Shown here one piece after another: positions 15,001-18,000 of a stretch of DNA of 64,000 nt. Every line of letters begins with the position of its first letter. Position 1 is the stretch's first letter. Source of the DNA: Escherichia coli (lineage in GTDB: Bacteria; Pseudomonadota; Gammaproteobacteria; Enterobacterales; Enterobacteriaceae); assembly GCF_009931435.1 (NCBI RefSeq), contig NZ_CP043414.1; one strand, 5' to 3'. Position numbers: made by a program.

Positions 15001-18000
15001 TACAACCTCGCTGTTAGCATCAAGGCCGGAAATCTGCGCCAGTGCGGCTTGCGGGCCTTTGTCGGCAATCAGTGCTGCCAGTTCCTGAGCCTGCGGATCA
15101 TCTTCACTGCGGAAGTGCATTGCAGCGGCAATACCTTCAATCAGGTTTTTATGTGGCAGACCATATTCCAGCGTTCCGAGCAGTGGCTTGATCAGACGGT
15201 CGCCAGCACTCAGTTTACGCAGCGGCTGACGGCCTACGCGCTCTACATCGTCTTTCAGATACGGGTTTTCAAAACGACCAAGGATTTTCTGGATGTACGC
15301 CGCATGTTTGTCCGCGTCAAAACCGTAACGCTTAATCAGTACAGCGCCACTTTCTTCCATCGCCCCTTTTACTACCGCGCGGATTTTCTCGTCGAGAATT
15401 GCGTCACGAATGGTCTGATGACCTGCCAGTTTTCCGAGGTACGCGGTTATAGCATGACCTGTATTCAGGGTGAAGAGTTTACGTTCGACAAATGCCATCA
15501 GGTTGTCGGTTAACTCCATGCCTGGGATGTTCGGCAGTGCACCTTTGAACTGGGTTTTATCGACAATCCATTCGCTGAAGGTTTCGACTGTCACTTCCAG
15601 CGGATCGTTCGTTGCCGAAGCGGAAGGCGGTACGATGCGGTCAACGGCGGAATCCACAAAGCCAACGTGTTCTTCTACCCACGCTTTGGCGTCTTCTGGC
15701 AGGGCGTTCATCACATGGCCTTTCAGCTGCGTGGTGCCGCGTACCATGTTTTCACAGGCGATAATGTTCAGTGGGGATTCATTACCTTGTTCTTTACGTT
15801 TCACCAGCCCTTTGGCGATTGCCGGAGCAATACGTTCCAGCACAACCGGGCCCACGGCGGTAGTGACTAAATCAACCTGAGCAATCAGATCAACGACATC
15901 ATCACCAATGCTGCTGACAGCATTGACGCCAGAAACGGTATCTACCTGCTCGGTTTCACCGACCACATGAACCTGATAGCTATGACGGGCATTCAGGGCA
16001 TCAAGTACCACCTGATTGACATCGGCAAACGTCAGTTGGATACCCGCGTCTGCCAGCAGTTTACCGATAAAGCCACGACCGATATTACCTGCGCCAAAAT
16101 GTAATGCTTTCATAGTATTAACCTTCATCAATGTTTTTACCCGAGAGGGCTGGGGTGAGGCTTTTCCCTCACCCAAACCCTCTCCATGTGGAGAGGAGCC
16201 GCGCCGGATGCGGCGCAAACGCCTTATCCGGCCTACAAGAACGTGCAAATTCAACAAATTGTGCTTTGTTTTTGTAGGCCTGATAAGCGTAGCGCATCAG
16301 GCAATTAGCCCATCTTCTCCATGTGGAGAGGGGCCGCGCCGGATGCGGCGTAAATGCCTTATCCGGCCTACAAGAACGTGCAAATTCAACAAACTGTGCT
16401 TTGTTTTGTAGGCCTGATAAGCGTAGCGCATCAGGCAATTAGCCCCACCGTCTCCATGTGGAGAGGTGGGATTGGATTACTTACGACCTGCCAGCAGTTC
16501 CAGCACTTCATCCACGCTGGTGGTGTGTGCCAGACGCTCGATGACGGACTCATCATCCAGTGCATTGGTCAGGCTGGTGATAACCTGAATGTGCTCGTTG
16601 TTACGGGCGGCAATACCAATCACCAGACGGGCAATGTCATCTTCTTCTTCACCGAAGCGCACGCCTTCCGGGTACTGGCAGAACACCACGCCCGTTTTCA
16701 GTACGCGATCTTTCGCTTCAACCGTACCGTGCGGTACCGCGATGGACTCACCCAGATAAGTCGGGGTCAGTTTTTCACGATCCAGCATCGCCTGAACGTA
16801 TTCCGGCTCAACGTAACCGCCTTTCACCAGCTGCTCGCCAGCAAAACGAATCGCTTCTTCTTTGGTGGCCGCTTTGCGACCGAGGAAGATGTTTTCCGCG
16901 CCCAGTTTGAAGAGGTTAGCACTGGAATCGTCAAAGCTGTCTTTCAGACTGTCTTTCACTTTTACTTCGTTTGCAGTGTGGCGCTGGGCAGCAACCAGAC
17001 GTTCGGTCAGGCTGGTGTACAGGCCACTGTCGAGGAAGTTGGTCAGCGAAATATGCTGTGCCTGCGGAACCTGACGCATAGCGCGTTCGGTCAGGTCACG
17101 GTGAGTGATGACCAGGTCCACATCTGGCGGCAGGTTGTTGATCGCGCTGTTAGTAACAGAAATCTGCGACAGACCTGCATCCTGAATTTTCTTACGCAGC
17201 ACGCCTGCACCCATCGCACTGGAACCCATACCGGCGTCACAGGCAACGATGATTTTACGTACGTGGCTCAGGTCGTTAGTCACATCGCCCGCAGACAGCG
17301 GAGACGCGCCTTTAGACTCAGCTTTCATTTCCTGAACGCGACGTGCAGCAGCTTCAATATCATCTTCTTCTTTCACTTTGCTGGTTTTCAGCAGAATGGC
17401 AGAGACAACGAAGGAGACTGCCATCGCCGCACACACACCCGCGATGTTAGCGAAGTAAGCACCTTTTGGCGTCATCGCCAGTACCGCAAGGATAGAGCCC
17501 GGAGATGCCGGCGAAACCAGACCACCACCCAGGATAGTCAGCGTGAACACGCCAGTCATACCGCCGAGGATAACGGCCAGGATCAGACGCGGATTCATCA
17601 GCACATACGGGAAGTAGATTTCGTGGATACCACCGAGGAAGTGGATGATTGCCGCACCGCCCGCAGACTGTTTAGCGCTACCACGACCAAAGAACATGTA
17701 CGCCAGCAGCACGCCCATACCAGGACCTGGGTTAGCTTCAATCAGGAAGAAGATGGATTTACCCAGTTCATGGGACTGCTGAATACCCAGCGGCGAGAAG
17801 ATACCGTGGTTAATGGCGTTGTTGAGGAACAGGATTTTCGCCGGTTCAACAAAGATAGACGCCAGCGGCAGCATGTCATGGACAACCATGAAGTTAACGC
17901 CCGCAGCCAGCATTTTGGACAGGGCTTCAACAATCGGACCAATGCCGAGGAATGCCAGAATGGCGAGGATCATCCCGATGATGCCAGCGGAGAAGTTATT

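Follow-up and report, generated by a model that had tools for sequence, protein, structure and literature searches.

Two tandem BIME-1-type units bounded by PIT/TMECO-like hairpins in the mtlA-mtlD spacer of Escherichia coli: a rare allele of a copy-number polymorphism

In the window, by which we mean the whole 64,000-nucleotide stretch of E. coli DNA analysed here (contig NZ_CP043414.1), mtlA and mtlD both lie on the minus strand and are separated by a spacer of 363 bp, which runs from the stop codon of mtlA (16477-16479) to the start codon of mtlD (16111-16113), the latter with a GAAGG Shine-Dalgarno sequence immediately upstream on the mRNA. An earlier examination of the same DNA (the sequence-only reading) had placed a duplicated repeat between mtlD and mtlA; the site stands, and the gene order is corrected to mtlA, spacer, mtlD and mtlR on the minus strand. 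In the closest genomes the annotated neighbours are the mtl operon, yibH and YadA-like/Rhs genes, and the K-12 annotation (NC_000913.3) lists no repeat feature in the mtl spacer. The features of the locus, by position in the window, are the following.

14378-14965, minus strand: mtlR
14965-16113, minus strand: mtlD, mannitol-1-phosphate 5-dehydrogenase, downstream cistron (NCBIfam NF002648, 879 bits, positions 1-382)
16143-16196, minus strand: degenerate PIT/TMECO (HPG1-like) module and its complement (inverted repeat; DNA folds)
16181-16315, no strand assigned: repeat unit 1, 135 bp, made up of hairpin copy 1, Y REP, L linker and Z1 REP (repeat search, Tandem Repeats Finder, alignment to canonical BIME)
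16181-16195, no strand assigned: hairpin copy 1 (TCTCC-ATGT-GGAGAG), which doubles as the final arm pair of the PIT/TMECO module (DNA fold -6.1 kcal/mol)
16203-16236, plus strand: Y-type REP of unit 1 (GCCGGATGCGGCG...CGCCTTATCCGGCCTAC; inverted repeat; fold -12 kcal/mol)
16237-16273, no strand assigned: L linker of unit 1, with a putative IHF-site core, CAAATTCAACAAATTG, at 16246-16261 (core pattern match)
16274-16302, minus strand: Z1-type REP of unit 1 (GCCTGATGCGCTACGCTTATCAGGCCTAC on the minus strand; REP tail; fold -8.6 kcal/mol)
16316-16450, no strand assigned: repeat unit 2, 135 bp, sharing 128/135 positions with unit 1 (repeat search, Tandem Repeats Finder, alignment)
16316-16330, no strand assigned: hairpin copy 2, the unit-to-unit junction (palindrome match; junction in only 18/5,426 genomes)
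16338-16371, plus strand: Y-type REP of unit 2 (inverted repeat; REP tail)
16372-16407, no strand assigned: L linker of unit 2, with a putative IHF-site core at 16381-16396 (CAAATTCAACAAACTG, one mismatch; core pattern match)
16408-16436, minus strand: Z1-type REP of unit 2 (REP tail)
16444-16470, no strand assigned: hairpin copy 3, its stem lengthened by CCCACC/GGTGGG (DNA fold -9.7 kcal/mol, z -4.3)
16477-18390, minus strand: mtlA, the upstream cistron, encoding the PTS mannitol transporter IICBA (full-length match to NCBIfam NF011663 at 1319 bits; matching genomes carry the annotation mtlA)

Self-comparison finds a repeat just where a tandem REP/BIME duplication had been proposed, and the repeat at 16177-16466 is confirmed as lying far beyond chance. 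Tandem Repeats Finder describes it as 2.1 copies with a period of 135, 93% matches and a score of 515, while a repeat search recovers a 92-nt pair (96% identical) and a 42-nt pair (100%) at a spacing of 135/134 bp, identity between copies in this interval being 93-96%. The two near-identical units expected from the sequence-only reading are therefore there, each of 135 bp and not the ~120 bp first estimated. That each unit contains REP motifs is likewise borne out, but the tctccatgtggagag palindrome, also taken as part of the unit, is not of the REP family, and it is three palindromes that bracket the two units: TCTCCATGTGGAGAG occurs at 16181, 16316 and 16451 (six two-strand matches against 1.18 expected). 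The flanks of hairpin copy 2 are chimeric, the left one having the context of the terminal copy (AGGCAATTAGCCCAxCTTCTCC) and the right one that of the first (GGAGAGGGGCCGCGCC).

The four REPs of the spacer, which end in CCTAC/GTAGG and fold at -8.6 to -12 kcal/mol each, belong to the REP/BIME family: their tail, CTTATCCGGCCTAC/CTTATCAGGCCTAC, recurs between genes elsewhere in the window (7562, 7597, 56611, 56660), and the places matched by a 701-bp query number 14 per E. coli genome in the median. Judged by its sequence, each mtl unit combines one hairpin with an element of the BIME-1 type (Y REP, L linker, Z1 REP). The units align with the canonical Y-L-Z1 BIME of the window at 56590-56690, with invariant REPs and a shared L core, CAAATTCAA-N-A-N-ATTG; the Z1 REP of unit 1 is identical to the Z REP of this canonical BIME-1 at 56660-56690, and the linker core, CAAATTCAACAAATTG, corresponds to CAAATTCAATATATTG, the canonical L motif at 56634. 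Hits to the pattern CAAATTCAANANATTG number three, against 0.07 expected: one in each mtl unit and one in the canonical BIME-1 at 56634. The putative IHF-site core reads ATTCAA-N4-TTG in unit 1 and ATTCAA-N4-CTG, with a T-to-C change in the TTR part, in unit 2. The names Y and Z1 follow the Gilson/Bachellier consensus, together with internal comparison, and are not a database call; Z1 rather than Z2 is indicated also by a stem shorter than that of the Z2 REPs in alleles L004-L006. Nothing in an Rfam scan reached the gathering threshold, the best hits being to naRNA4 (38.1 and 32.5 bits against a threshold of 59.5), and this sub-threshold similarity to a REP325-derived nucleoid-associated RNA is shared REP sequence only.

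BIME-2 elements reportedly form tandem arrays with copy numbers that vary among strains (Bachellier et al. 1997; Ton-Hoang et al. 2012), and the mtl array is like them in consisting of tandem intergenic REP pairs whose number differs among strains. It differs from the BIME-2 pattern of Y/Z2 alternation, short S linker and s/l/r flanks in having Z1 and a 36-37-nt L linker, a period of 135 bp as against about 100, and a non-REP hairpin as the unit boundary; the 101-bp units of alleles L004-L006 do have the BIME-2 organization. BIME-1, by definition, comprises a Y REP and an inverted Z1 REP with a long L linker carrying an IHF site and is single-copy, and BIME copy number is known to differ between strains (PMC3333891). 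The mtl unit shares with BIME-1/RIB/RIP elements the Y REP and inverted Z1 REP, with ~36 nt of linker between them, and an extragenic, transcribed site just past the end of a gene. Its copies, however, are in tandem (two here, three in alleles L007, L080 and L081) and are parted by a locus-specific non-REP hairpin, an arrangement that the published scheme would class as an "atypical BIME". Since tandem copies stand in place of a single one, the array, as its sequence suggests, is more aptly called a tandem BIME of atypical kind assembled from BIME-1 components.

The TCTCC-ATGT-GGAGA hairpin that separates the units is, as far as sequence can tell, not a REP but an arm of a degenerate PIT/TMECO motif (also HPG1). 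PIT is reportedly an intrastrand-triplex motif (Hoyne 2000). In mRNA sense the mtl module reads CCTCTCC-ACAT-GGAGAGGG-TTT-GGGTGAGGG-AAAAG-CCTCACCC-CAG-CCCTCTC, that is, a C-rich arm, loop, GGAGAGGG, TTT and GGGTGAGGG in the order of the type-A reference (CCCTCTCCC-loop-GGGAGAGGG-TTA-GGGTGAGGG, with TTA/CCG loop variants and 9-nt arms), and it comprises two adjacent hairpins, 16152-16174 and 16179-16196, which by Watson-Crick DNA folding reach -16.3 and -16.5 kcal/mol (z about -2.9). Departures from the reference in the E. coli mtl copy are its 7-8-nt arms, its TTT loop, the complementary CCTCACCC-CAG-CCCTCTC segment that follows the module and gives a second hairpin, and one G-tract of just GG, for which reason its predicted G-quadruplex potential is weaker. 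Members of the PIT/TMECO family are classed as intrastrand-triplex motifs (Holder 2015; PMC4666352), although no stable triplex was found in vivo for TMECO (PMC4666352), while HPG1/HPG2 have been described as a switch between G-quadruplex, hairpin and duplex (Kaplan 2016; PMC5100583), the HPG1-type motif being conserved across bacteria (PMC5100583). TMECO loci are hypervariable, with replication slippage proposed as the cause (PMC4666352), and the mtl module resembles them in lying in an intergenic region near a gene 3' end at a strongly length-polymorphic locus; it is absent from the 23 K-12 TMECOs in Table 1 of that source (PMC4666352).

The module has a wide distribution. By itself it makes up the whole ~95-bp mtl spacer in about 25 species of at least 12 non-Escherichia enterobacterial genera; the palindrome is single-copy at the same mtl position in other genera, and in Enterobacter, Lelliottia and Leclercia the module copy is a perfect type-A motif. 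Where about 0.01 hits would be expected, a 23-base module pattern matches 68 loci among species representatives, of which about 37 are non-mtl loci (in Pseudomonas, rhizobia, Phycisphaerae, Chloroflexota and others), so that the module is, as expected of PIT/TMECO, an intergenic motif dispersed in multiple copies across bacteria. BLAST for dispersed copies within E. coli returned about one place per genome, at an E-value limit (28-Gb database) too strict for degenerate motifs of ~35 nt. For the GGGTGAGG/CCCTCTCC module the label "Box C", a repeat reportedly first described downstream of fabI (envM), was considered and dropped: the K-12 fabI-yciW spacer lacks the motif, a literature search on Box C gave nothing usable, and PIT/TMECO/HPG1 is documented instead.

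Comparison across 5,426 complete E. coli genomes confirms that the copy number of the unit varies among strains, with alleles of 0, 1, 2 and 3 units. The 0-unit allele, counted with a 41-nt junction-only query, occurs in 869 genomes and has a 94-bp spacer with one hairpin and no BIME; one unit (229-bp spacer) is present in roughly 3,460, K-12 included (3,479 genomes have one or two units at a query cover of at least 80%); and two or three units, counted by the unit-to-unit junction, are found in just 18 (0.33%), the spacers checked measuring 363/364 bp with two units and 498 bp with three. A separate BIME-2 series occupies the same spacer in 1,044 genomes as one to three tandem 101-bp Y-S-Z2 units. 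Throughout the 135-bp series, n units are always accompanied by n+1 hairpins at exact 135-bp spacing. In their flanks the window and L081, a strain with three units, disagree at only 2/503 and 2/440 positions, which means that one haplotype has undergone a change in copy number, whereas the flanks of other multi-unit alleles diverge by up to about 4%, which places the array on several haplotypes; units within one allele are 94-98% identical, and the duplication is therefore either old or between diverged alleles. The multi-unit alleles reflect either recurrent events or one old event spread by recombination. All E. albertii, E. whittamii and cryptic-clade genomes sampled have one BIME between two hairpin copies, and the 0-unit allele, instead of being a secondary deletion, may have persisted as an ancestral polymorphism. 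The two-unit mtl spacer is thus a rare allele of a well-known copy-number polymorphism and not a new system.

How might such a series have arisen? Comparison among species shows that an older PIT/TMECO-like module, which alone forms the spacer in other enterobacterial genera, was joined in the Escherichia lineage by a BIME, which came to lie between two direct copies of the hairpin. These hairpin-forming direct repeats of 16-23 bp would be substrates for unequal exchange or slipped-strand mispairing, and exchange between hairpins would give, to judge from the end products, either the exact loss of the unit, leaving 0, or its doubling to 2; from two 135-bp units, ordinary unequal crossing-over could lead to three or back to one. 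The n+1 hairpins and the chimeric flanks of the internal hairpin point to this kind of unequal exchange or replication slippage between hairpin repeats, although a tandem repeat by its nature cannot reveal the exact breakpoints. A rival origin follows the proposal made for BIME-2 and atypical BIMEs: the TnpA-REP tyrosine transposase (RAYT) would have multiplied the unit by cutting REPs and transferring strands there, with no role for hairpin homology. It has in its favour that TnpA-REP cleaves BIMEs in vitro, that strand transfer can build tandem BIMEs and that amplification models exist (PMC3333891), and the 101-bp BIME-2 family indicates that BIME-type amplification has happened in this very spacer. 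Yet the repeated unit includes a locus-specific hairpin that is not a REP, the n to n+1 relation is not predicted by RAYT models, the unit is of the BIME-1 type reported as single-copy (PMC3333891), and the matching 0-unit allele keeps exactly one hairpin, which fits direct-repeat exchange; amplification by RAYT thus appears unlikely. To the account as a whole, a 135-bp array of BIME-1 and hairpin with hairpin-mediated changes in copy number and a nearly neutral polymorphism, we assign a probability of about 0.8.

A different kind of explanation, in which mis-assembly created the duplication or the repeats form a minimal CRISPR-like array, has very little to commend it. Repeats of this size can indeed be mis-assembled from short reads, but two- and three-unit structures with unit-specific SNPs occur in 18 independent complete genomes from various countries and hosts. 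Three short, evenly spaced palindromes do give the superficial likeness to a CRISPR array that the sequence-only reading had pointed out; the likeness fails on inspection, as the 120 bp between palindromes are themselves repeated and made of REP units 94-100% identical, not unique spacers, the palindromes number only three at a period of 135 bp, the palindrome is an ancestral single-copy feature of the operon found at the same place in other genera, and no cas genes are among the annotated neighbouring features in the closest genomes. We consider both versions of this explanation next to negligible.

The long spurious ORFs predicted on both strands are indeed present, and none has Pfam support. 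They include one of 131 aa at 16016-16411 (plus strand), one of 89 aa at 16169-16438 (minus strand), a 430-aa version of mtlD extended from an upstream TTG, and an antisense ORF of 636 aa, which begins within unit 2 at 16354 and is a codon-aligned shadow of mtlA, a gene with only 2 TTA, 0 CTA and 1 TCA codons. Real small proteins encoded in the repeat were considered and rejected, given no family hits and ORFs that change with copy number.

As to function, an intercistronic REP reportedly acts as a stabiliser in the malE-malF operon (Newbury et al. 1987). The mtl REP stem-loops similarly lie between two sugar-transport cistrons, just downstream of the first gene, where by analogy they may be expected to protect the upstream mRNA segment from 3' exonucleases; the mtl array differs in having PIT/TMECO hairpins and IHF-type linkers as well. 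The array would be transcribed within the mtlADR mRNA, its very stable stem-loops would, as with other REPs, slow 3'-to-5' exonucleases to the benefit of the upstream mtlA segment, and the second unit would, from established REP/BIME biology, double the IHF-type DNA sites. An effect on mtl mRNA stability, as the sequence-only reading had suggested, or on IHF binding is by this analogy plausible. Literature searches pairing mtlA with REP or with Term-seq returned nothing relevant and no expression data for the spacer, and the analysis gave no sign that copy number alters the expression of mtlA or mtlD.

It is a further step to suppose that unit copy number is selected as a tuning device, in which additional REP stem-loops and IHF sites would set the MtlA:MtlD ratio, by way of attenuation or of segment-specific mRNA stability, or alter the local DNA architecture. 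REPs and BIMEs have been credited with mRNA stabilization, transcription attenuation and binding of IHF and gyrase (PMC3333891, PMC1187871), the minus-strand spacer RNA has a predicted fold of -168 kcal/mol (z -9.2) and becomes much more structured with each unit (the in silico MFE changing by about -60 kcal/mol), every allele has a stable hairpin (copy 3 in the window) starting 7 nt past the mtlA stop codon on the mRNA, and several length alleles persist in the species. Against these considerations, very few genomes have multi-unit alleles, mtlD is preceded by a Shine-Dalgarno sequence of its own with a predicted ribosome-binding-site accessibility that is the same across alleles (0.46-0.50), a consensus scan of the spacer for terminators and promoters found none, and PIT/TMECO motifs had neither promoter nor terminator activity according to earlier work as cited in PMC4666352. 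We regard selected tuning as decidedly unlikely, and the most likely status of the extra copy is that of a rare, nearly neutral polymorphism. Bolder still, and highly improbable in our estimation, is the conjecture that the PIT/TMECO hairpin by the mtlA stop codon is a site-specific instability element that repeatedly captures palindromic elements, not the same ones in Escherichia, Klebsiella, Superficieibacter and Lelliottia, with the BIME-1 series of 0-3 units reversible and serving as a heritable knob for MtlA:MtlD or for IHF and DNA structure.

For annotation, the region is to be masked as REP/BIME plus PIT/TMECO hairpin, neither genes nor CRISPR. Beyond that, two known classes of repeat can be seen interacting in the mtl spacer, a clean case from nature in which a hairpin of the triplex/G4 type would supply the short direct repeats by which a normally single-copy BIME-1 contracts and expands, yielding the series of 0, 1, 2 and 3 units in public genomes. 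If copy number did change the expression of mtlA and mtlD, the locus would provide a simple natural system for REP dosage within an operon.

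The spacer between mtlA and mtlD is polymorphic in length, with multiple REP/BIME alleles, and the window carries one of the rare ones, with two units; the sequence-only reading, which proposed a tandemly duplicated REP/BIME unit there, was largely correct, and the feature is real. Tandem Repeats Finder reports a repeat at 16177-16466 (period 135, 2.1 copies, 93% matches, score 515), a repeat search gives a 92-nt pair 96% identical and a 42-nt pair 100% identical at spacings of 135/134 bp, with three palindrome copies in register with the repeat, and direct reading of 15900-16700 places the spacer between two minus-strand genes. 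The unit length, earlier put at about 120 bp, is 135 bp, with two units between three hairpins. The 15-mer TCTCCATGTGGAGAG occurs three times in the 64-kb window, always within the mtl spacer (six two-strand matches versus 1.18 expected by chance).

Features of the mtl operon and its spacer repeat
14378-14965: mtlR, after mtlD in operon order
14965-16113, minus strand: mtlD (NCBIfam, 879 bits)
16114-16476: mtlA-mtlD spacer, 363 bp
16203-16236 (unit 1) and 16338-16371 (unit 2): Y-type REP
16274-16302 (unit 1) and 16408-16436 (unit 2): Z1-type REP, inverted
between the Y and Z1 REPs of each unit: linker, 36-37 nt
one per unit: unit hairpin, TCTCC-ATGT-GGAGAG
16477-18390, minus strand: mtlA (NCBIfam, 1319 bits)

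Further intergenic sites of the window also bear the REP tails CTTATCCGGCCTAC and CTTATCAGGCCTAC; one of these sites, 56590-56690, is a canonical Y-L-Z1 BIME-1 with an IHF-type linker. The mtl units are likewise Y-L-Z1 but differ from BIME-1 in being tandem; aligned with the 56590-56690 element, their REPs are invariant and a linker core is common to all, and the linker pattern CAAATTCAANANATTG has just three matches over the whole window (0.07 expected), namely both mtl units and 56634. Because BIME-1 is defined as y, a long L linker and z1, while tandem arrays of strain-variable copy number are described for BIME-2 (y, z2, short S linker) and atypical BIMEs (Ton-Hoang et al., PMC3333891), this array, a tandem assembled from BIME-1 parts, would count as “atypical” under the published scheme. 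Rfam matches to naRNA4 (REP325-derived RNA) are sub-threshold only (38 bits versus a threshold of 59.5), a similarity owed to the REP content of the spacer. A weak match to the ES036 (CssrF) sRNA falls on the BIME-1 L linker at 16238-16281, plus strand (19.4 bits versus a threshold of 37.6), and this family may itself come from a BIME linker elsewhere. The window also carries a Y-short linker-Z1 pair at 7540-7630 and, near 42351-42435 and 61328, REP-like matches of a more degenerate kind; the TCTCC...GGAGA hairpin flanks none of these, nor the element at 56590-56690.

That hairpin had been taken as part of a unit combining a palindrome with REP motifs. The REPs stand, their tails matching other sites, while the palindrome, judged by its sequence, reads not as a REP feature but as one of the arm pairs in a PIT/TMECO element. 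On its mtlD side, unit 1 is adjoined by a further inverted repeat, GAGAGGGCTGGGGTGAGG / CCTCACCCAAACCCTCTC, and the minus (mRNA-sense) strand reads CCTCTCC-ACAT-GGAGAGGG-TTT-GGGTGAGGG-AAAAG-CCTCACCC-CAG-CCCTCTC. TMECO, formerly PIT, is an intrastrand-triplex motif, CCCTCTCCC-loop-GGGAGAGGG-TTA/CCG-GGGTGAGGG, with 23 copies in K-12 at loci that are hypervariable among strains, for which replication slippage was suggested as a cause (Holder et al., 2015, PMC4666352); the same sequences have been described as HPG1/HPG2, a G-quadruplex-hairpin-duplex switch that is intergenic, close to 3' ends and conserved across bacteria (Kaplan et al., 2016, PMC5100583). The module in the window corresponds to a slightly degenerate type-A motif with a complementary tail, and the orthologous mtl copy in Enterobacter, Lelliottia, Leclercia and others to a perfect type-A motif; the K-12 mtl copy is absent from Table 1 of Holder (PMC4666352), presumably on account of its 8-nt arms. 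When one genome per bacterial species was scanned with the 23-base pattern GGTGAGG-N6-CCTCACCC-N3-CCCTCTCC, 68 loci were found against about 0.01 expected by chance, 31 of them mtlA-mtlD spacers by tblastn and the remainder unrelated sites in Pseudomonas, Neorhizobium, Phycisphaerae, Chloroflexota, Burkholderiales and others. Near-identical GGTGAGG...CCTCACCC...CCCTCTCC...GGAGAGGG stands at non-mtl sites in distant phyla, which is consistent with published claims that PIT/HPG1 is widespread. These sites include eleven Pseudomonas loci, the left flank aggggtgattg... being common to about a dozen Pseudomonas species with the motif, two Neorhizobium loci, and three copies with similar flanks in one Phycisphaerae MAG.

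Comparison across strains, as the sequence-only reading had suggested, reveals that copy number varies from 0 to 3 units of 135 bp. Of 5,426 complete E. coli genomes, 5,425 gave a match at the mtl locus to a 701-bp query; the spans were discrete, and spacer contents were read from example genomes.

Spacer alleles in complete E. coli genomes
94 bp: the module alone, with a single hairpin and without a BIME
229 bp: one unit (K-12)
363/364 bp: two units
498 bp: three units
318/419/520 bp: one/two/three 101-bp Y-S-Z2 (BIME-2) units, then a degraded Y-L-Z1

Junction-specific queries of 41-71 nt place the empty, 94-bp allele in 869 genomes, the BIME-2-series left junction in 1,044, and the 135-bp unit-to-unit junction in only 18 of 5,426 (0.33%), ten of which share the match pattern of three verified three-unit strains, the others having two units; one or two units are present in 3,479 genomes, the class being defined by matches over 80% or more of the window query. 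In every allele read, n units go with n+1 hairpins at a spacing of exactly 135 bp, and the internal hairpin is chimeric, with the left context of the terminal copy and the right context of the first. The BIME-2 family was read in EV36, EcPF5 and MS20674, with 1, 2 or 3 tandem 101-bp units; the IHF half-site is deleted from the degraded Y-L-Z1 that follows. Since the left junction of this series, GGGACTTTTTGCCGGATG, is also found in E. albertii, both allele families appear to predate E. coli.

The window and L081, a three-unit strain, have flanks that differ at just 2/503 and 2/440 positions, whereas other multi-unit alleles differ pairwise at up to 19/503 and 19/440, so copy number has altered within one haplotype and arrays also sit on diverged haplotypes, pointing to either recurrence or recombination. 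In another two-unit allele (L001) the mtlA side is nearer to K-12 than to other multi-unit alleles. Within a single allele the units share 94-98% identity, and the arrays are therefore not brand-new. Over 14 kb (10000-24000) the closest complete genome, strain 2020CK-00188, likewise two-unit, reaches 98.5% identity, and match coverage is broken around the YadA-like and Rhs genes adjoining the mtl operon; the source strain is without a close representative in the collection and its mtl neighbourhood is variable.

All non-Escherichia genera sampled, including Enterobacter, Klebsiella, Leclercia, Lelliottia, Pluralibacter, Pseudescherichia, Pseudocitrobacter, Superficieibacter, Silvania and Huaxiibacter, have the module only, in about 95 bp, some with an extra palindrome. 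One BIME between two hairpin copies is found in E. albertii, E. whittamii, two cryptic-clade Escherichia genomes and two divergent E. coli representatives. The module is hence ancestral in the mtl spacer, and the layout of a BIME between duplicated hairpins is older than the Escherichia radiation. The flanks of the 94-bp E. coli allele are those of ordinary E. coli, so the simplest account of this allele is a secondary event, a precise deletion between hairpin repeats, though it could also be an old polymorphism retained. The extra palindromes differ by genus and share one position, on the mtlA stop codon side of the PIT/TMECO hairpin and ahead of that codon, which suggests a hot spot of repeated insertion; carriers are three Klebsiella loci, three from Superficieibacter and relatives, and two from Lelliottia and RIT714, and the kinds include REP-like hairpins of Klebsiella type, a GCCGCACC.../...GGTGCGGC hairpin and an inverted second copy of TMECO.

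Alongside the observed anatomy, allelic series, n+1 rule, chimeric junction and ancestry, a route to copy-number change can be proposed. Its substrate would be the 16-23-bp direct repeats that form hairpins: unequal exchange or slipped-strand mispairing between them would yield a duplication, the same exchange in reverse a deletion, and homologous unequal crossing-over between 135-bp units would then lead to three units or back to one. RAYT-mediated amplification, as proposed for BIME-2 (PMC3333891), is a weaker fit than exchange between hairpin repeats: part of the repeated unit is a hairpin that is no REP, and amplification is not usual for BIME-1.

The long ORFs over the repeats, called spurious from the outset, are indeed so: mechanical, without Pfam support and dependent on copy number. 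The 636-aa ORF at 16354-18264 (plus strand) starts within unit 2 and runs antisense, codon-aligned, to nearly all of mtlA, staying open because mtlA uses only 2 TTA, 0 CTA and 1 TCA codons; a Pfam search of it gave no support, and it was rejected as a gene in favour of a shadow ORF of mtlA. The supposed superficial likeness to a two-unit CRISPR array also fails, the “spacers” being repeated REP units and the palindromes only three, and the annotated neighbours are instead mtl, yibH and YadA-like/Rhs genes.

The array lies inside the mtlADR transcript, where the minus-strand spacer has a predicted fold of -168 kcal/mol (z -9.2). Predicted MFE is -54.5, -126.5, -183 and -250 kcal/mol for 0, 1, 2 and 3 units, the mtlD Shine-Dalgarno region having a predicted unpaired probability of 0.46-0.50 in all alleles. 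In every allele a stable hairpin begins 7 nt beyond the mtlA stop codon and might influence termination, an effect for which work by Liang, Rudd and Deutscher in 2015 reportedly gives the basis. The malE-malF case exemplifies established REP biology. Such biology, as reviewed (including PMC3333891), comprises 3'-exonuclease protection, attenuation and IHF binding, and by analogy the mtl REPs would probably shield the mtlA segment lying upstream and be bound by IHF at the L linker. Consensus scans found no terminator-like or promoter-like site, and PIT motifs had neither activity in earlier work (cited in PMC4666352); a literature search found no data on the mtlA-mtlD spacer. Its frequency of 0.33% makes it most probable that the extra unit is close to neutral. 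The two repeat classes are already published, as is their link to strain-to-strain variability; the modest twist here is that the repeated element is of the BIME-1 type and that the points of exchange would be copies of the PIT/TMECO hairpin.
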